In this document: positions 3,007 to 59,550 of the stretch, piece by piece | Layout of the letters: every line of letters begins with the position of its first letter | Position numbering within the stretch: the stretch's first letter is position 1 | Source: Chloroflexota bacterium | Lineage (GTDB): Bacteria > Chloroflexota > Anaerolineae > Ardenticatenales > JAADHH01 | Assembly (NCBI GenBank): GCA_013151955.1 | Contig: JAADHH010000041.1 | Span: forward strand, 8,969-72,968 | Direction: 5' to 3' | Length of the DNA: 64,000 bases | Notes under the pieces: generated by a model | The model's database searches: none | The model's input: the letters and a program-made list of their open reading frames with translations, nothing else | What the model was told of the DNA's origin: nothing | Made by a program: the position numbers and the translations under genes

Positions 3007-3042
3007 GTTTCTGCTCCTGTCCAGGCTGGTCTGCTACGAAAA

Positions 3043-3140
3043 TAACGTGTCGAGTGTCAGGTGTCACGTAATGCGTTATGCGTGTTGCGCGCCACTCGCT
3101 CATTGACAATTGAAAATTGACATTTGATCATTGATCATTG
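3043..3140. repeat. Run of about 14 phased heptanucleotide units between the GGDEF gene and hsp20
   Basis: Read directly from the sequence: AACGTGT CGAGTGT CAGGTGT CACGTAA TGCGTTA TGCGTGT TGCGCGC CACTCGC, then CATTGAC AATTGAA AATTGAC ATTTGAT CATTGAT CATTG. The 5' part resembles the family-B repeat (..cacgttattttc..) in reverse orientation. Confidence 0.7.
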
Positions 3141-4714: not shown

Positions 4715-6508
4715 TCACGATGCTTGTGGTCGCCAAGTCTGAATGAGTTTCGCTAGATGCGCTGTGTCCAAGATGATTACGATGCGCCCGTCGCCCATTA
4801 TGGTCGCGCCGGCAGTCTTTGGTGCGTTGGCCAAAAAAGGGCCCAAAGACTTGGATATTACTTCCTGTTCGTCCAGCAAGTGGTCTACAGCCAGGGCCGA
4901 CAAGCCGGTGTGTCTCAGAATGACGACCGGAATTGCATTCCCGTTTGGCGTCCAGGCAGATTTGTTTTCCAAAAGCTCATAGAGAGGAGCCAACGGAACT
5001 ATTTTGTCCCGGTATCGTAGAGCGAGACGGCCATCGATTCGTTGGATGGCTTCGGCGCGCACTACGCCGGTGGAAACCACAGATAGCGTGGGCAGCGCCC
5101 ACTGGTATCCTCCACATTCCACAAACAGGGCGTGGACGGTGGAAAGGGACAGGGGGAACGTGAGTACAAACCGGGTACCCTTTCCCAGGTCACTGGAGAC
5201 CAAAAACGTGCCCCGCAGTGCTTCCACCTGTTGTCGGGCGGCACTCATCCCCACGCCCCGTCCAGATGTGTCCGTGAGTTGCTTGCTGGTGCTCAGTCCA
5301 TCGTGAAAGATGAGCTCTATGGCCTGGTCGTCGTCCATCTGCTCCGCTTCGGCGGTCGAGATGATGCCCTTCTCCACAGCCCGCGATTTGATGCGCGATG
5401 GGTCGATGCCTCTGCCATCATCCTCGACCGTGATCTGCACGCGGTCCCCCCCCAGTGTGGCAGAAATGTGGATGTGGCCGGAAGGTGGCTTGCCCCGGGT
5501 TATTCGTTCATCCACCGGCTCGATGCCATGGTCTACGGCATTGCGCAACAGGTGGATTAGGGGGGAGGCCAATCCTTCGATGATTTCTCTATCGAGGGCG
5601 GTTTCGCCTCCTTCGATAGTCAGGCGGACATCTTTGCCCTGCTGTCGCGCCAGATCGCGAGCTGCCCGGGGCAAAACCGAGAGGACCGTAGAAACCGGCA
5701 AAAGGCGCATGTAGAGAACTTGTTCTTTCAACTGGTCTGTCAAGTCATCGGTGACATCCAGGTATTGCTCGTAGGTGAGCTCCAATTCGCTGACATACCG
5801 GTAGAGGTCGCGAAGCTGGTTCGTGGCCCACACGCTGCGCTCTGAATCTTGTTTTTCTGTGGTGCGGTCATTGCCATTTTGTCCCATGGTCTCGCGACCG
5901 AGCTTGCGCAACCGGGCGGCAAGATCACCCAGTTCCCTAAGGTATCGAAGCGACTGGAGCTTTGTCATGGTCAACTCAGAACTGATTGAGACCAGGCGAT
6001 CGATTTGTCCTACGCTGACGCGGAGTGTTTCTATGGTTGTGGGGCGTGCCGCAGATTGTATGTCGGGAACAGGTGTTTCTGCGGGCTCGGCCTGTACTTC
6101 GATTGTTTTCCCTTCTGCCGCAGCAACCAGTGCTTCGCACAGCTCGTCCACATCCAGTGAAGCCGTCTCCTGCTTTTCAGCAGCACGTGTGTGAATCTCT
6201 ATGGCATCTATGCCACGGAGCAGAAGGTCGTTGAGTGCCGGTGTGATGGGCTTCTTTTCTCTTTCCAGCGTTTCGAAGACATCCTCCATGCTGTGGGCCA
6301 CACGCGCTATGGTTTCCAGCCCCATAATTTTCGCGGCTCCCTTTATGCTGTGGGCAGCGCGAAAGACATCGTGCAGGCTCTCGATGTTATCCGGGTTCCT
6401 CTCCAACTCCAGCAGGCCGGAAGTGATCGCTTGAATGCGCTCTTCAATTTCCTGGACGAATTCGCCCATAAAGGCGGAAACGTCAAACCCATCTGCGAGA
6501 TTTGTCAT
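4715..6508 (-). CDS. cheA: Chemotaxis histidine kinase CheA
   Basis: HPt motif HSIKGAAKIMGL. N-box HLLRNAVDHGIE, G1 DDGRGID, G2 GRGVGMSA. C-terminal CheW-like region. ATGA start/stop overlap with cheW at 6505-6508. Confidence 0.9.
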   Translation of the reverse strand: MTNLADGFDVSAFMGEFVQEIEERIQAITSGLLELERNPDNIESLHDVFRAAHSIKGAAKIMGLETIARVAHSMEDVFETLEREKKPITPALNDLLLRGIDAIEIHTRAAEKQETASLDVDELCEALVAAAEGKTIEVQAEPAETPVPDIQSAARPTTIETLRVSVGQIDRLVSISSELTMTKLQSLRYLRELGDLAARLRKLGRETMGQNGNDRTTEKQDSERSVWATNQLRDLYRYVSELELTYEQYLDVTDDLTDQLKEQVLYMRLLPVSTVLSVLPRAARDLARQQGKDVRLTIEGGETALDREIIEGLASPLIHLLRNAVDHGIEPVDERITRGKPPSGHIHISATLGGDRVQITVEDDGRGIDPSRIKSRAVEKGIISTAEAEQMDDDQAIELIFHDGLSTSKQLTDTSGRGVGMSAARQQVEALRGTFLVSSDLGKGTRFVLTFPLSLSTVHALFVECGGYQWALPTLSVVSTGVVRAEAIQRIDGRLALRYRDKIVPLAPLYELLENKSAWTPNGNAIPVVILRHTGLSALAVDHLLDEQEVISKSLGPFLANAPKTAGATIMGDGRIVIILDTAHLAKLIQTWRPQAS

Positions 6509-7005
6509 GGTTTTGTGTCGTCCATAAGAATGGTCGATAGTCGGTCTGCATCCAAGACACCGACAAGTTGGCCATCCACATCAATGAAGCCACGGAACAG
6601 TTGCGGCCCGGCCGGAGTGGATAAAGGGGGCGCTATCTCCGTGTCGGAAACCTCACGCACATCACCGGTATGTGATGTCAGCAAGCCACAAGCGTGCCCG
6701 CCCACCGAGACCATGAGGATGCAGCAATCGGTTTCGTGCGAGTCCCGCGCTATTTGCCCGTAGATTTGGGCAAGGTCCACGACTGCGGTGATGTTGCCGC
6801 GCAAGTTCACGACCCCGGCAATGTACGGCGGCATATCCGGCACCGGCGTGATCGGCAGCATGGGTTCTACACTCAATACGTGCTCGATTTCCAGGGCCAA
6901 CTGCATCTCTCCTACGTCGAAAACTACGTAGGGTGTGCACTCTGCGGTTGTTTTCGCCTGACGAGACGAATGTGCATTTGAATTGGATTGGGCCATATTC
7001 CCCAT
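6505..7005 (-). CDS. cheW: Chemotaxis coupling protein CheW
   Basis: 166-aa ORF with a CheW-like pattern (YVVFDVGEMQLALEIEHVLSV...VVNLRGNITAVVDL...GFIDVDGQLVGVLD). Translationally coupled to cheA. Confidence 0.85.
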   Translation of the reverse strand: MGNMAQSNSNAHSSRQAKTTAECTPYVVFDVGEMQLALEIEHVLSVEPMLPITPVPDMPPYIAGVVNLRGNITAVVDLAQIYGQIARDSHETDCCILMVSVGGHACGLLTSHTGDVREVSDTEIAPPLSTPAGPQLFRGFIDVDGQLVGVLDADRLSTILMDDTKP

Positions 7006-7025
7006 CTTCGTTTCAAGAAGTTCAA

Positions 7026-7156
7026 GTATCTTCGCAAAAAGTAGGGGCGTACCCTTGCGGTCGCCCTACGGGGCAGGGTCGCCCTACGGGGCAGGCGCAA
7101 GGCCGGCAAGGGCAGGCGCAAGGCCGTGCCCCTACCCCGAATTATTGAGAAGATAC
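7026..7156. mobile_element. MITE family A, copy 1 (131 bp)
   Basis: Terminal inverted repeat gtatcttcGcaa ... ttgagaagatac. Internal GC-rich tandem duplications (gtcgccctacggggcagg x2, gcaggcgcaaggccg x2). Flanked by near-identical 8-mers aagttcaa (7018-7025) and cagttcaa (7157-7164). Confidence 0.65.
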
Positions 7157-7164
7157 CAGTTCAA

Positions 7165-7323
7165 ATTCTAAAGCAGTCACCATGAGCGATTGCGCGCCAC
7201 CAACAATGAAAATCGTGTGGAGCGTCGAGCGTGAAGGCGTGAAACGTATTGCGTATTGCGTCTTACGCATCACGCATCACGTTTACGTTTTACCTGACAC
7301 CTGACACGTTATTTTCAAAGCAG
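7165..7323. repeat. Family-B composite intergenic repeat (B1 hairpin module + B2 heptad-doublet module)
   Basis: B1: aaagcagtcaccatgagcgattgcgcgccaccaacaatgaaaat, also at 46977-47019. B2: cgtattg cgtattg cgtctta cgcatca cgcatca cgttta cgtttta cctgaca cctgaca cgttattttcaaagcag, also at 32138-32217, 46913-46983, and in reverse at 24307-24396. Its 3' end overlaps the stop codon of the selenoprotein gene. Confidence 0.8.
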
Positions 7324-7551: not shown

Positions 7552-7612
7552 GTTGTGCTCCCCCGTAGGAATTGCGCAATACAGTTCTATTGTTACTGCT
7601 CAGGCAAGGCCC

Positions 7613-7741
7613 GTGCCGGATTGAAATCGGCACTGGGTGCCCCACCAAGCCGCTGAAAGCGGCTGAATCTCCACCGGTAGTAGGGGCGCAAAGCTGTGCG
7701 CCCCTACTACCGTGTGGCCAGTGACGGCTTCAGCCCGTCAC
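7613..7741. repeat. Array of four consecutive perfect or near-perfect hairpins
   Basis: Four hairpins: gtgccgg/tcggcac (7613-7633), agccgc-tgaaa-gcggct (7648-7664), a 15-bp perfect stem ggtagtaggggcgca-aagctg-tgcgcccctactacc (7676-7711), and gtgacgg-cttcagc-ccgtcac (7721-7741). None is followed by a T-run. The third shares the gtaggggcg...cgcccctac core with MITE family A. Confidence 0.7.
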
Positions 7742-13026: not shown

Positions 13027-14025
13027 CTATCGTTTATCGTCCATTTTCTGAATGAACGCATCGAGCGAAGTGGTGTCGAGGGCCACATCGAGCAAGCTCT
13101 CCAGGTGTGCAGCATCCAGCGTGCGCAGTTTCACCTCCACCCCGGAAGATACCCGCCCGAAGCGGTGCTCCAGCACCCGCAACAGTTGCCGCAGCGCGCC
13201 CTGTCTCAGGCCTTGCTCCAGACCCTGCTCCAAGCCTTGTTCCAGGCCCTGTTCCAAGCCTTGCTCCATCCACTTCTCCGCAATCGTGGCCATCAGTTCC
13301 CCTCCTTCCGGGACTCTCGCCTCCACAACTCTCCGCAGTTCTTCTTCCCGAAGCTTATCCGTCCCTACCGACAGATACCGCAACAACGTCTCCAGGTATT
13401 CCAGCCCCGTCTCCTGGCCTAACAGTTCTGCTCCTAACCCCAAAATATGCCCCAGATGCGTTTCTACATCATCCCGCAGAATGTACTTCAGCGTCAGCAA
13501 CCCCACCTGCAAGAGCACCGCTCCCTTGATCTCTTCGTCGCTGTAGGCCGACAGGTCGCACAGACAATACCGGTAGTCGGGCACGTACGCCCTCATCTCT
13601 TCCGGCGCGTCGAACAGGCTCCACAGGTCTAGCCCTACCTTCCATCTCGCTACCCCGTGATACAACACCACCGGCAGGATTGGCAACAGTTGCCCCTGCT
13701 GTCGCAAGTCTTGCTCCCATATCCGCACCACGTAGCGCAACAACTGAAAGGCAACACCCTCATCAGGATAGCTCTTGTGCTCGAACAGCACGTAAACGCG
13801 CGCTTCGCCTCCCTCTTTCCAGGCTACTTTGTAGAGCAGATCCGAAAAGTGTGTCCGCAACTCCGTGTCGACAAAGGTATCTTTGCTCGCTTCCAAGGTG
13901 GACAGGTCGAGCAAGTCTACCACCTCGGGCGGCAAGTAGTAGCGTATGAAGTCGCGGGCCGCCTCCCCGTGGGAGAGCAATTGTTTGAAAAAGTGGTCGT
14001 GGGGTGTGCTGATCCCGGTCATCAT
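13027..14025 (-). CDS. Rpn/YhgA-family recombination-promoting nuclease / putative transposase (PD-(D/E)xK) with DUF4351-like C-terminus
   Basis: N-terminus PHDHFFKQLLSHGEAARDFIRYYLP...FSDLLYKV...VYVLFEHKSYPD is typical of the Rpn/transposase_31 family. The C-terminus has an (EQGL)x5 repeat encoded by 12-nt tandem repeats (about 13198-13265), followed by a LRQLLRVLEHRFG... tail. Confidence 0.8.
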   Translation of the reverse strand: MMTGISTPHDHFFKQLLSHGEAARDFIRYYLPPEVVDLLDLSTLEASKDTFVDTELRTHFSDLLYKVAWKEGGEARVYVLFEHKSYPDEGVAFQLLRYVVRIWEQDLRQQGQLLPILPVVLYHGVARWKVGLDLWSLFDAPEEMRAYVPDYRYCLCDLSAYSDEEIKGAVLLQVGLLTLKYILRDDVETHLGHILGLGAELLGQETGLEYLETLLRYLSVGTDKLREEELRRVVEARVPEGGELMATIAEKWMEQGLEQGLEQGLEQGLEQGLRQGALRQLLRVLEHRFGRVSSGVEVKLRTLDAAHLESLLDVALDTTSLDAFIQKMDDKR

Positions 14026-14075
14026 GAGCCTCAGTCGTTGGTGTGTCAGAATGAAGGGATTTATGCCGATGCGTG

Positions 14076-14207
14076 GTATCTTCTCAAAAAGTAGGGGCGT
14101 ACCCTTGCGGTCGCCCTACGGGGCAGCGGTCGCCCTATGGGGCAGGCGCAAGGCCGGCAAGGGCAGGCGCAAGGCCGTGCCCCTACCCCGAATTATTGAG
14201 AAGATAC
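14076..14207. mobile_element. MITE family A, copy 2 (132 bp)
   Basis: TIR gtatcttctcaa ... ttgagaagatac. Perfect 8-bp direct repeat gatgcgtg immediately on both sides (14068-14075 and 14208-14215). Near-identical to copy 1. Confidence 0.75.
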
Positions 14208-14236
14208 GATGCGTGGTAGTAACCCTCGTAACGCAG

Positions 14237-17245: not shown

Positions 17246-19516
17246 TTGAAAGGACGTTTTTCGTTTCCAAAGGGATGGCTCACGTGGACGCTGCTGCTGT
17301 TCATGCTCCTTTGCGTGAGCTGGGCTATCGAAGCGGCAGGCTGGGCAGAGCATTTGAACTTGCTCCAATCGGCCGCCATCATCTCCCTGATCGTTGGCTA
17401 CCTTCTCGCCCGTTCCTCCTGGCCGGGCCCAATCGTACACTTGATGGGGGGATTGTCTGGCCTGCTCTGGGTGGGTTACCTGGGCACTACACTTTTTCCA
17501 CGCACAGAAAATTGGGGCCAACGTCTTGCACAATTGGTAATTCATGTCACCCTGTGGGCGGAAGCCGTCGCAAATGGAGGCAATAGCGCAGACAATCTCG
17601 TCTTTGTGCTTACGATGGCTCTGCTCATTTGGGGGCTGGGGTACATAGCGACCTGGCTGGTCTTTCGCCATCACAACGCCCTGGTTTCCGTAGTCGTCTT
17701 GGGTTCCGTTCTTCTGGTCAACGTGTATTACGCCCGGAACGACGAAACCGCATTTGTCTTGTTCTTTCTGGCGCTGGCCTTCTTGCTGATCATCAGAAGC
17801 AATCTCACCCTGCAAGAAGAAGAATGGCAGGCCGGCGACATCCGCTATAATCCTGACCTGGCCTTCTACTTCTTGCGGGACGGAGCCTTTCTGGCCGTGA
17901 TCGTGATAGCCATGGCCTGGTTTGCCCCGGCCTCGCTCACCGATCCGCGGCTGACTCCGCTGACCGCGCGTTTGGCCCGGCCTTGGCACCAAGTGCAACA
18001 ACATTGGAGCAAACTCTTTTCTTCCCTCCACTACGGGAAAAGTCAGCCGGGCACGACCTACTTTGGCACGACCCTCGCTTTTTCGGGGCCGGTGAATCTG
18101 TCGGACCGGGTGGTCATCAAAGTTCGCGCGGATGGCGGACGCTACTGGCGCGGTGCGGTATACGACAAATATTCCAGCGCCGGATGGGTCAACACAGACA
18201 ATGTCCTGCTGGAGGTGGGAAAACCGCCAACGCGATTGCCGGTCGTGCCATACCAGAAACGTCACCTGCTTACCCAAACCTACCAGTTGCTTTCTCCCAA
18301 CGGGAACCTGTTGTTCGCTGCGGCGCAACCGGCGCAAGTCAGCCTGGGCACACGGGCCTTGCTCACACCCCTCTCCTCCACGCCGGCAAGCCCGGGGCAA
18401 CCGGTGAACTCGGCGTCCATCTCGATGTTGTATAGCGTGGAATCTCTTTACCGGGGCCAGGAGTACCAGGTCAATTCGTACATCTCGTATGCCGATGTCC
18501 AAAGCTTGCGCCAGGCAGGCACCGATTATCCGGCCTGGGTACGTGCGCGTTATCTGGAACTTCCCGATTCCCTTCCGGAACGTGTGCGCCAGGAGGCTCG
18601 CCAAGTGGTTCGCGGTCTGGATACGCCGTACGATAAGGCCAAGGCCCTGGAGACCTTTTTGCGTGGGTTCCGGTACAACGAGGCCATCCCCGCCCCCCCC
18701 GCGGGCCAGGACGGCGTGGACTACTTCCTCTTCGATGTCCGCGAAGGATACTGCGATTATTATGCCTCGGCCCTGGCGGTGATGCTGCGCTCGGTTGGCG
18801 TCCCGGCGCGCATTGCGTCTGGGTATGCCCAGGGGGAGAAAAGCGCTTCAGACAATACGTTCATTGTGCGCGAGCGGGATGCCCACTCCTGGGTAGAAGT
18901 TTATTTTCCCGGATATGGTTGGGTGGAATTTGAACCTACGGCTGCGCAGCCCCCGATCAATCGTCCGGAAACCGGCACGGACCGGGAAACCACTGTGGGT
19001 GGTGCGCTGCGCCCAACGCCGGAGCCGGGCGAATCGACCGCTTCGCGCCTTGACCGGCTGCGGGACGTCTCTGCGCTTGGCGACGTACCGGCTACGGGCT
19101 TGCAAGAGGTGCTCCGTAAATCGGCCACCCGGATAGGCTGGTCTGCGCTTATTCTGGGCTTGCTTTCTGTGTTGCTCGGCGGGGTGGTTTGGCGCAGCAA
19201 GTGGCAACGGGAGCAACAGCATGCCCCGCTGGTGTTGAGCATATACCGCCAGGTGAAAGTGCTTGGCTTTCTTGGCGGGTTCCCGGCCCAGGAGTGGCAG
19301 ACGGTTCGTGAATATGCCGCTTCCCTCGCCGAGTACAGCCGGCTTTCAAAGGGTCTCCTGCTCCGTCTGGCCGATCTGGTTACGCAGCGGTTGTATGCTC
19401 CGGAGGGCCACAGCGAACACGAGGGGGCGGATCATCGAGAGGCCGAAACGCTGTGGCAACGTATTCGGTGGCCGCTGATTCGTTTTGCTTTGCGTCCTCG
19501 TTGGCCCCGGCGTTAG
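17246..19516 (+). CDS. Transglutaminase-like membrane protein (TgpA-like)
   Basis: Polytopic N-terminus followed by a transglutaminase core (EGYCDYYASALAVMLRSVGVPARIASGY...DAHSWVEVYFPGYGWVEFEPT). The track start 17039 would overlap the upstream gene by about 200 nt. An in-frame TTG at 17246 lies just after the upstream stop, and the first ATG is at 17303. The start is uncertain. Confidence 0.75.
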   Translation: MKGRFSFPKGWLTWTLLLFMLLCVSWAIEAAGWAEHLNLLQSAAIISLIVGYLLARSSWPGPIVHLMGGLSGLLWVGYLGTTLFPRTENWGQRLAQLVIHVTLWAEAVANGGNSADNLVFVLTMALLIWGLGYIATWLVFRHHNALVSVVVLGSVLLVNVYYARNDETAFVLFFLALAFLLIIRSNLTLQEEEWQAGDIRYNPDLAFYFLRDGAFLAVIVIAMAWFAPASLTDPRLTPLTARLARPWHQVQQHWSKLFSSLHYGKSQPGTTYFGTTLAFSGPVNLSDRVVIKVRADGGRYWRGAVYDKYSSAGWVNTDNVLLEVGKPPTRLPVVPYQKRHLLTQTYQLLSPNGNLLFAAAQPAQVSLGTRALLTPLSSTPASPGQPVNSASISMLYSVESLYRGQEYQVNSYISYADVQSLRQAGTDYPAWVRARYLELPDSLPERVRQEARQVVRGLDTPYDKAKALETFLRGFRYNEAIPAPPAGQDGVDYFLFDVREGYCDYYASALAVMLRSVGVPARIASGYAQGEKSASDNTFIVRERDAHSWVEVYFPGYGWVEFEPTAAQPPINRPETGTDRETTVGGALRPTPEPGESTASRLDRLRDVSALGDVPATGLQEVLRKSATRIGWSALILGLLSVLLGGVVWRSKWQREQQHAPLVLSIYRQVKVLGFLGGFPAQEWQTVREYAASLAEYSRLSKGLLLRLADLVTQRLYAPEGHSEHEGADHREAETLWQRIRWPLIRFALRPRWPRR

Positions 19517-20733
19517 GCAGACAGTTCCTCGTTCTCGCGTTCCTCTATAATCGTACGCAATATTCCCAAGATTGCCTGGGAGACTCGATTGCGGGGCTCG
19601 GCTATCAAGACCGGTATGCCCCGGTTTGCCGACGCGGTGACCGTAGGGCCTCCGCTGGGAATGCGGTAGGTAATCGGCAGGGAAAGCCATTGTTCCACGT
19701 CTTTTGGGGATATACCTACACGTGAATTGTGCCGGTTGAGAACCACCTTCACTTGTCGTTCGTCATAACCCAGCGCATTCAATACGGCCAGGAAGTGGCG
19801 GGCGTTCTTCAGGGCCCCGATTTCGGGTACGACAATCAAGAGGGCCAGGTCGGCGGCTTCGAGTATGGTCAACGTGCGGTCGTCATACGATTGGGGGCAG
19901 TTGATCACGATCCAATCGAACAGACGCGGGAGCAAGACAAAGAGTTGCTGTAGGTGTTCGGAAGTGATCAACTCGGAGTGCTCTGGGCGCGTGGGGCCCA
20001 GCATGACGCGCACGCCGGTTTGCTCGTGGCGGGGCATTAGCCCCTTGACGAATTCTGCCTCCAGGGCATCAGCCCCAATATCGTTGTAAGCATCCGCAAA
20101 GTCGCTGATTGTGTGCGTGGGCTTGATGTCCAAGAGCAAGCCACAGTCGCCGAAACTGAGGTCCGCGTCCAGCAAAGCCGTCGAAGACTTGGTACTCATA
20201 CGCAACCCGACGGCGAGATTGATAGCCAACATGGTTTTGCCGACGCCTCCCTTGGCACCAAAAACAACGATGACCTTTCCTTTTTGGGTGATAGGCCGCA
20301 TCACAAGGGGGCCTGTGCCGGGAACCATTTTCTTGCGGCGTTCGCTACGTTCAGAACGTACGCGCTCGGCCACTTCGCGGATGGTTTCAACGAGCGTCGT
20401 GTTGTCAATCGGCTTGGTCAGATAACTGCGCGCACCGGCCATCATGCACCGCCGGAGATGCCACGTGTCGAAGGCTGTGGTCAGGACGACGACCGCCAGG
20501 TCCCTTTCGCGCGTGGTGTATTGCCAGATCGCCTTGGGACCTTCCATGTCCGGCAGGTCATCGGCAAGCAGGACGACGTCTATCTCTGTCGTTTGGAGGA
20601 TTTCCAACCCCTCGGACGCGGTCCCGGCTTGCCCCACAATCTGCATGTCGTGATGGAAGGAGAGCGTCGTGGTGAGGAGCGCGCGAATCTCCGGAAGTCG
20701 TTCGACAATTAGTATCCGATATGGATCGTTCAC
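19513..20733 (-). CDS. Response-regulator receiver fused to a ParA/MinD-type ATPase (CpaE/TadZ-like)
   Basis: REC: YRILIVERLPE...DVVLLADDLPDM. Deviant Walker A: VFGAKGGVGKTMLAINLA. GTG start at 20733. Its stop overlaps the convergent stop of the transglutaminase gene (TTAG at 19513-19516). Confidence 0.8.
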   Translation of the reverse strand: MNDPYRILIVERLPEIRALLTTTLSFHHDMQIVGQAGTASEGLEILQTTEIDVVLLADDLPDMEGPKAIWQYTTRERDLAVVVLTTAFDTWHLRRCMMAGARSYLTKPIDNTTLVETIREVAERVRSERSERRKKMVPGTGPLVMRPITQKGKVIVVFGAKGGVGKTMLAINLAVGLRMSTKSSTALLDADLSFGDCGLLLDIKPTHTISDFADAYNDIGADALEAEFVKGLMPRHEQTGVRVMLGPTRPEHSELITSEHLQQLFVLLPRLFDWIVINCPQSYDDRTLTILEAADLALLIVVPEIGALKNARHFLAVLNALGYDERQVKVVLNRHNSRVGISPKDVEQWLSLPITYRIPSGGPTVTASANRGIPVLIAEPRNRVSQAILGILRTIIEERENEELSA

Positions 20734-20752
20734 GGGTTTTTCCTTTACTTTG

Positions 20753-20844
20753 GTATCTTCTCAATAATCCGTGGTAGGGGCATAGCCTTGCGCTTGCCCC
20801 GTAGGGCGACCGCAAGGGATCGCCCCTACTTTTTGAGAAGATAC
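20753..20844. mobile_element. MITE family A, copy 3 (92-bp deletion derivative, opposite orientation)
   Basis: TIR gtatcttctcaa ... ttgagaagatac. Perfect 8-bp target-site duplication ttactttg at 20745-20752 and 20845-20852. It lacks the internal tandem duplications of copies 1 and 2. It sits 20 nt upstream of the GTG start of the REC-ParA gene. Confidence 0.8.
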
Positions 20845-20902
20845 TTACTTTGAACATAGCGGTCAGGCCACAGACGTGCCGGGCGAAGGCCCGCCTGTGT
20901 AG

Positions 20903-21056
20903 TTTGACAATGTCACATTTCCTTGCACGGCGGTTGAAACCGCGTGCTACCGGTGGCGAAGGCCACCTGCGTGGCCTCGTTTAGCTGCCGCAGGGCAGCT
21001 TCGCCCCACGTAGCCGCGAATTCATTCGCCAGGCGTTCGAATGTGACATTGTCAAA
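20903..21056. other. 154-nt highly structured element closed by a perfect 17-bp inverted repeat
   Basis: tttgacaatgtcacatt (20903-20919) pairs with aatgtgacattgtcaaa (21040-21056). At least four internal hairpins: gcacggcgg-ttgaaa-ccgcgtgc, cgaaggccac-ctgc-gtggcctcg, agctgcc-gcag-ggcagct, and gcgaa-ttca-ttcgc. Could be an ncRNA, a terminator complex or a MITE-like element. Single copy in this window. Confidence 0.6.
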
Positions 21057-21091
21057 GTAGGCAGGTCGCCCGACGGTACGTGCGACCACGG

Positions 21092-24236: not shown

Positions 24237-24306
24237 CGGGGGGGGCTTCCGACGTCCGCCGCTCCACGGTTTTCATCCTTGGTGGCGATCAGCCGCTCAT
24301 GATGAC

Positions 24307-24396
24307 TGCTTTGAAAATAACGTGTCACGTGTCACGTAAAACGTGATGCGTGATGCGTAAGACGCAATACGTTTTACGTCTTCACGTTTCACGCCC
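24307..24396. repeat. Family-B2 heptad-doublet repeat, reverse orientation
   Basis: ctgctttgaaaataa cgtgtca cgtgtca cgtaaaa cgtgatg cgtgatg cgtaaga cgcaata cgtttta cgtcttc acgtttcac, with a CG every 7 nt. Confidence 0.8.
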
Positions 24397-24397
24397 C

Positions 24398-24432
24398 CTA
24401 CTCCCTACTCCCTACTCCCTACTCCCTACTCC
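24398..24432. repeat. Tandem heptanucleotide (CTACTCC)x5
   Basis: Five exact head-to-tail copies, counted base by base. Confidence 0.95.
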
Positions 24433-32137: not shown

Positions 32138-32217
32138 CGTATTGCGTGTTGCGTCTTACGCATCACGCATCACGTTTTACGTTTTACCTGACACCTGACA
32201 CGTTATTTTCAAAGCAG
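32138..32217. repeat. Family-B2 heptad-doublet repeat
   Basis: cgtattg cgtgttg cgtctta cgcatca cgcatca cgtttta cgtttta cctgaca cctgaca cgttattttcaaagcag. It ends exactly at the ribF stop codon (32218-32220). Confidence 0.85.
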
Positions 32218-46794: not shown

Positions 46795-47032
46795 ACATAA
46801 AACGTGACGCCTGACGCAACCCGTTCGCCATGACAAACCGGGCGCGCCATTTTCAAAGTGGTACCATTGAGCGCGGTTGCGCGCGCCACCAGGGATGAAA
46901 ATGGCGGGACGTGAAACGTCTTGCGTCTTACGCATCACGTTTTACGGATTACGTGACACATGACACGTTATTTTCAAAGCAGTCACCATGAGCGGCTGCG
47001 CGCCACCAATCATGAAAATGGAGCGTCGGGCG
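46795..47032. repeat. Composite family-B repeat: two B1 hairpin modules flanking one B2 heptad module
   Basis: ccattttcaaagtggtaccattgagcgcggttgcgcgcgccaccagggatgaaaatgg, then gtgaaacgtcttgcgtcttacgcatcacgttttacggattacgtgacacatgacacgttattttcaaag, then cagtcaccatgagcggctgcgcgccaccaatcatgaaaatgg. Confidence 0.8.
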
Positions 47033-59301: not shown

Positions 59302-59400
59302 GTATCTTCTCAATAATTCGGGGTGAGCAGAGTGTCGCGCCCCCCTAACCCCCCAACTTTGGGGGGAATGTGCTCCCCCAGAATTGGGGGCCGGGGGCGT
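59302..59400. repeat. Chimeric repeat: one MITE-A end fused to a family-C palindrome
   Basis: gtatcttctcaataattcgggg (identical to the end of MITE copies 1-3), then cccctaaccccccaactttgggggg...cccccagaattggggg (family C). No matching second TIR is present. Confidence 0.65.
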
Positions 59401-59550
59401 CCCCCAGGTTATTTCACGTTGCCCATTATACCGCAGCGAAAGGGCCGTGTCAAAGCCTGTATCTTCAACTAACTGCTGCGTATTTGCAAGGATTCCAGAT
59501 TGCCAGTATAATTTGATAGGGTATGCCACGAAGAGCGTACGCATTACGCG

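Follow-up and report, generated by a model that had tools for sequence, protein, structure and literature searches.

The short inverted-repeat elements of the analysed window, a 64-kb stretch of contig C66, are in our assessment non-coding MITEs that carry the ends of a single-ORF IS66-type (ISBst12-like) insertion sequence and were moved in trans with 8-bp staggered insertion (probability about 0.9). The genome to which the window belongs (G000) is a draft MAG of 3.02 Mb in 166 contigs, with 58.7% G+C and 86% completeness; its named relatives assign it to the order Ardenticatenales of the Chloroflexota. Under this interpretation, MITEs of 88-170 bp would keep only the ~22-bp terminal inverted repeats (TIRs; GTATCTTCTCAATAAnncGGGG) of an insertion sequence of 1.76-1.85 kb; a transposase supplied in trans would bind both MITE ends, staggered cuts 8 bp apart would be made at insertion, and repair would leave an 8-bp duplication. 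The mechanism is ordinary mobile DNA; the family itself seems undescribed, and the accessible literature yielded no description of a family with this end sequence or of IS66-derived MITEs like it.

MITE copies in the window and across the genome

The original prediction described three copies with inverted ends of GTATCTTCTCAA and duplicated flanks, and all three are present as first described. Copy 1 (7026-7156, plus strand, 131 bp) belongs to a long subfamily in which the 92-bp type carries internal tandem duplications; its left end, GTATCTTCGCAA, has one mismatch to the 12-bp end, and its target-site duplications (TSDs), AAGTTCAA on the left (7018-7025) and CAGTTCAA on the right (7157-7164), match at 7/8 positions. 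Copy 2 (14076-14207, plus strand, 132 bp) has perfect 12-bp inverted ends and is flanked by GATGCGTG on both sides (14068-14075 and 14208-14215; 8/8). Copy 3 (20753-20844, minus strand, 92 bp), a member of the 92-bp subfamily in the orientation opposite to copies 1 and 2, terminates in the perfect 12-bp inverted ends GTATCTTCTCAA and TTGAGAAGATAC and lies between two copies of TTACTTTG (20745-20752 and 20845-20852; 8/8).

Sequence comparison revealed that copies 1 and 2, which share 97.7% identity, represent the 92-bp type enlarged by tandem duplication of 19-bp and ~21-bp units. Elsewhere, the 19-bp unit of the window-type core (GGTCGCCCTACGGGGCAGC) is found in 1 to at least 4 tandem copies (C137:15593-15796, C160:12559-12707, C85:15293-15462). 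A truncated fourth copy (59302-59413, plus strand) consists of the left 22-bp end and the G-rich core of the ~123-bp subfamily; its sequence stops at ...CAGGTTATT and the right end is absent, intact ~123-bp members having both ends. This copy sits at a TGTTTTTC hot-spot within another repeat, and its end accounts for the seventh occurrence of the 12-mer (up to 1 mismatch) in the window; shuffled sequences predict 0.09. Every window copy folds as one long hairpin (z = -5.6 to -8.8), that of copy 3 reaching -55 kcal/mol (z = -8.8). None of the copies has coding capacity, the overlapping ORFs being spurious only.

Across the genome, we identified 80 paired copies of 88-170 bp, plus ~70 further ends. 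Many unpaired ends adjoin contig ends or runs of N, indicating that the family clearly breaks the assembly. A perfect 8-bp TSD flanks 43 of the 78 scorable pairs and a 7/8 match is found at 15 more, compared with 1 perfect 8-bp duplication in 20,000 random controls; nothing but 8 bp fits the genome-wide pairs. The TSDs vary in sequence, with 49 distinct 8-mers among 58 copies, and are AT-rich (65% A+T versus 41% for the genome). The genome-wide copy count and TSD check proposed at the outset thus returned many further copies with exact duplications. An open frame reads through 6 of the 80 copies, compared with 70% of random sites.

The 12-bp inverted repeat of the original prediction holds over those 12 bp but understates the extent of conservation. 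The functional end spans ~22 bp, comprising positions 1-15 and GGGG at positions 19-22, and the consensus of 154 MITE ends reads GTATCTTCTCAAtAanncGGGG.

The full-length IS66-type partner

A genome of the same order contains an element of 1794 bp whose ends read GTATCACCTCAA..., with an 8-bp TSD (TTCATCTT) and one ORF of 546 aa that fills the element; the remaining ORFs are antisense overlaps, and neither tnpA nor tnpB is present. Searching with this 546-aa transposase returned 80 loci, many of which are elements of 1.76-1.85 kb bounded by exactly GTATCTTCTCAATAA...GGGG and flanked by perfect 8-bp TSDs, the latter seen at ~20 full-length elements. Four full-length copies occur in Ca. Amarolinea aalborgensis and two in the closed 10.4-Mb genome of Ardenticatenaceae FR_9, with further ones in Chloroflexia and Terriglobia MAGs. 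Taken over 38 insertion-sequence ends, the consensus (GTATCtTCTCAATAAnccGGGG) gives the 22-nt motif already seen for the MITE ends, and one MITE end equals the right end of an Amarolinea element over 24 nt. A search for an insertion sequence with the same ends, suggested with the original prediction, therefore found such elements in related genomes, with the same 8-bp TSDs. The closed Ardenticatenaceae genome G016, of the same order, holds intact insertion sequences together with a 143-bp MITE (TSD AAAACGGC), showing that a single genome within this order can house both autonomous and miniature forms.

The transposase (~540 aa) matches PF03050 (DDE_Tnp_IS66) with 53.9-56.6 bits, above the cut-off of 23.1, although only in part (profile positions 129-283 and a second stretch). 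Its score against the NCBIfam IS66 equivalog NF033517 falls below the cut-off (119.2 versus 180 bits), which indicates a divergent branch rather than a typical TnpC. Annotated plasmid records name the protein only 'transposase'.

The ISBst12 group, exemplified by ISBst12 of Geobacillus stearothermophilus and by ISDge4 of Deinococcus geothermalis with its 8-bp direct repeat, has one ORF per element, direct repeats of 8 bp and ends that follow the pattern GTRACTNCTCAGCA (PMC12898284). The partner resembles this group in its single transposase ORF, the lack of tnpA/tnpB, the DDE_Tnp_IS66 domain and the 8-bp TSDs, and its ends, like those of ISDge4, begin with GTA and share GTAnCTnCTCA (GTAACTGCTCAGCA versus GTATCTTCTCAATA). 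It departs from the group in that its transposase is longer (~540 aa versus 449 aa for ISDge4), matches the Pfam model in part only and lies below the NCBIfam IS66 cut-off, and in that its ends differ in sequence and carry the conserved GGGG at 19-22. The window elements, in turn, are non-coding derivatives and not the insertion sequence itself. Judged by ORF layout, TSD length and ends against the description of ISDge4, the predicted architecture of the partner matches an ISBst12-like element.

Within G000, a PF03050 profile search of the assembly detected no IS66-type transposase, and neither tblastn (queries: four full-length transposases) nor blastn (queries: three whole elements) recovered anything beyond the shared ends. 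The matching transposase is absent from both the window and the assembled genome, in agreement with the non-autonomy originally proposed. It was likewise not found in G001 and G002 (same genus) or G003 (same family), all fragmented MAGs; the one IS66 match in G001 belongs to another element, which lacks these ends. An isolated end close to the terminus of contig C57, with an RBS-like site and an ATG after it, was considered as the start of a full-length element and rejected, as it shows no similarity to such elements beyond 27 nt.

Multi-copy elements of 1.8 kb usually drop out of fragmented MAG assemblies. In other MAGs the insertion sequence often forms a stand-alone contig of ~1.8 kb, and the shortest G000 contig is 3 kb, so that a contig of this kind would be lost here. 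We infer that a transposase copy exists, or recently existed, in the organism and is missing from the 86%-complete draft; the IS66-type transposase found in the relatives would be the enzyme that moves these MITEs.

Insertion sites, subfamilies and rival explanations

The family prefers AT-rich intergenic targets and hot-spots inside other repeats. Approximately two thirds of all copies are nested in other repeat families, and for nested copies the host repeat has up to 36 paralogues that lack the MITE and carry a single 8-mer. The hot-spot cacaGAAAAACAgaga is occupied by elements of different lengths, some at a 2-bp offset, a pattern that favours separate insertions at the same site over the spread of a single composite. 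Copies 2 and 3 are flanked by sequence that matches nothing else in the genome; the concern raised with the original prediction, that the flanks might belong to a longer conserved repeat, does not apply to these two copies.

Unoccupied sites in related genomes, which the original prediction had suggested looking for, were found for copy 1. At the orthologous cheW site, G001 carries one AAGTTCAA and lacks exactly 139 bp (131 + 8), and the site is also unoccupied in G002. In the reciprocal comparison, four insertions of G001 (L130, L132, L133 and L149) correspond to empty sites in G000, and two (L131 and L136) are common to both genomes. The positions of copies 2 and 3 hold no MITE of this family in G001, G002 or G003, where the intergenic DNA has diverged or the contig ends; at the copy 3 site, G002 reads TTACTTTG-AGA up to the contig end.

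Exact end 12-mers number 166 in G000 and 83 in G001, with only 3 in G002 of the same genus, 16 in G003 (same family), 11 in G016 (same order) and 4 in G030 (same class), against 0-1 occurrences of the reversed pattern used as control. Sister species thus have very different copy numbers, and this spread, along with the identical 91-bp copies described below, indicates recent lineage-specific bursts.

Four main subfamilies share the same ends and differ in their cores: a 91-bp subfamily (n = 29), in which many copies are 100% identical; the 92-bp subfamily (n = 16 paired), which includes copy 3; a ~123-bp subfamily with a G-rich core (n = 14); and a 111-132-bp subfamily (n = 11), which includes copies 1 and 2. 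Mean identity within the subfamilies of the window is only 91-93%. The cores are related to palindromes that exist throughout the genome without terminal repeats, namely a 34-bp hairpin, AGAAGTTCGACTTCT-ggc-AGAAGTCGAACTTCT, at 20 loci and a G-rich double palindrome at 35 loci. This resemblance suggests that a single end pair has become joined to various host palindromes.

The stand-alone 34-bp hairpin forms a REP-like family in its own right (AGAAGTTCGACTTCT-loop-AGAAGTCGAACTTCT, with a AGAAGTTCAAC variant), present at no fewer than 20 loci (e.g., C138:30352-30385 and C164:11020-11053) and also at the site in G002 that is orthologous to copy 1 (contig C61). The hairpin is similar to the core of the 91-bp MITE, and MITEs have in turn inserted into it more than once, with TSDs AAGTTCAA, TTCAACTT and GTTCAACT. 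About 15 copies of the 91-bp subfamily show a partial duplication of 2-16 nt at one terminus (e.g., TTGAGAAGATA-TTGAGAAGATAC), with the 8-bp TSD intact beyond it; examples are C8:11685-11786, C19:6275-6377, C99:1493-1600, C132:16449-16548 and C163:5789-5885. These micro-duplications coincide with the point at which other contigs break or carry runs of N (element bases 88-90), and they are probably scaffold-join artefacts.

Because all copies fold into long GC-rich hairpins, are strongly intergenic and have cores resembling the palindromes at the 20 and 35 loci above, they could also be read as REP/BIME-type extragenic palindromes that a RAYT tyrosine transposase or recombination had disseminated and that serve as structural or terminator hairpins. 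REP/BIME elements are likewise GC-rich intergenic palindromes, and G000 does contain stand-alone hairpins like the MITE cores. However, REPs are not known to make a TSD or to carry terminal repeats of the insertion-sequence type, whereas the window MITEs have both TSDs and TIRs that match an insertion sequence. With exact 8-bp TSDs at 43 of 78 copies, precise empty sites and ends equal to those of a DDE insertion sequence, the TSDs and empty sites largely refute a REP/BIME origin, which we regard as extremely improbable, and the original preference for transposition over a REP-type hairpin is upheld. It is also very unlikely that the MITEs derive from another 8-bp-duplicating family (IS256, ISL3, IS1595 and others) and match IS66-type ends by coincidence. 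Several families do make 8-bp duplications and no partner is assembled in G000, but 15 contiguous terminal bases plus GGGG at 19-22 are common to dozens of IS66-type elements, the insertion sequence and a MITE occur together in one closed genome, and no transposase of another family was seen between these ends.

The copies might alternatively be immobile relics of a past amplification, persisting as fossils after loss of the partner, some of them perhaps co-opted as 5'-UTR hairpins. The failure to find the partner in G000, G001, G002 and G003, the two insertions common to two species and the 91-93% mean identity of the window's subfamilies are all in keeping with this idea. The many 100% identical 91-bp copies speak against it, as do the insertions that differ between two same-genus species in both directions and the contrast between 3 ends in G002 and 166 in G000, which points to recent bursts; furthermore, MAGs that are 86-93% complete would probably miss a repeated insertion sequence. 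We therefore judge immobility to be unlikely, if still credible. MITEs mobilised by an IS66-type transposase remain the preferred reading, and the family combines the features by which MITEs are recognised: short (<300 bp) non-coding elements with TIRs, TSDs of fixed length and varied sequence, empty sites, and ends shared with an autonomous element.

Comparable elements are known from other bacteria. Correia elements of Neisseria, RUP of Streptococcus pneumoniae and Nezha of cyanobacteria are short, non-coding and multi-copy, with TSDs and with TIRs that match an insertion sequence; like the window MITEs, they are intergenic, often lie by start codons and form hairpins in RNA. The window MITEs differ from them in their IS66/ISBst12-like parent, the 8-bp TSD and the several unrelated cores carried on one end pair.

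Gene context and possible effects

Each of the three copies in the window lies close to the start of a gene. Copy 1 is positioned 20 nt upstream of the ATG (7005) of cheW (6505-7005, minus strand; PF01584, 99.8 bits), which lies downstream of it, and falls within the divergent region where the promoter of the cheW-cheA unit must lie. Copy 3 precedes a gene for a receiver fused to a ParA/MinD-type ATPase (REC-ParA; 19513-20733, minus strand; PF00072, PF10609) and sits directly 5' of the likely ribosome-binding site; a hybrid kinase gene is located upstream of REC-ParA on the same strand. The distance of 20 nt originally given for both signalling genes is exact for cheW, but for REC-ParA the interval to the GTG (20733) is 19 nt. 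Copy 2 lies 50 nt upstream of a gene for a YhgA/Rpn-like PD-(D/E)XK protein of the 'Transposase_31' type (13027-14025, minus strand; PF04754, with a C-terminal DUF4351).

This YhgA-like gene contains an EQGL tandem-repeat stretch (12-nt repeats at 13198-13279) and is 92% identical in G001. As a potential mobiliser of the adjacent MITE it was rejected, since it belongs to an unrelated nuclease family, a different class of enzyme, has no matching ends and is kept in G001 without the MITE.

Additional repeat families occur near the MITEs. A second family of ~150 bp lies directly beside copy 1 (7170-7323), with ends CTGCTTTGAAAATAACGTGTCA... and internal short repeats of the ACGCATCACG type; further window copies are located at 3031-3089, 24270-24400, 32145-32217 and 46908-47018. 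The family is represented in G001 and G002, and the orthologous G002 site lacks it. A third high-copy short repeat (~87 bp at 7592-7677) has more than 35 matches in G001 at 85-95% identity. At a distance of 50 nt from copy 3, an element of ~170 bp (20894-21065) is enclosed by the inverted repeat GTAGTTTGACAATGTCACATT / AATGTGACATTGTCAAAGTAGG; the motif at its termini also borders G-rich palindromes at other places in the genome.

Along the cheW transcript, the last part of copy 1 is a GC-rich hairpin followed by UUUUUG, a configuration that a simple terminator scan did not flag; promoter and terminator scans inside the MITEs found nothing. Judging from their position, the hairpin-forming insertions by the cheW and REC-ParA start codons may change expression, a possibility raised with the original prediction. 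A broader scenario, which we put forward tentatively as possible rather than probable, is that the IS66-type end pair repeatedly captured unrelated host palindromes (the 34-bp REP-like hairpin, the G-rich double palindrome and a GTAG-rich hairpin with the variable 19-bp tandem unit), thereby founding the subfamilies. The resulting elements would preferentially land at specific 8-mers in other intergenic repeats and by start codons, and would act as modular 5'-UTR hairpins or terminator-like structures tuning genes such as cheW and REC-ParA.

For genome analysis, the family accounts for many contig breaks in these MAGs, and its masking or annotation is advisable, as the hairpins could be mistaken for regulatory RNAs or small genes. 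With two insertions ~20 nt from the start codon of a signalling gene, the window offers candidate examples of 5' untranslated regions altered by a transposon. Collectively, the family provides a well-documented example of MITEs from a poorly studied single-ORF branch of IS66, with a defined functional end of ~22 bp, in an uncultured Chloroflexota lineage.
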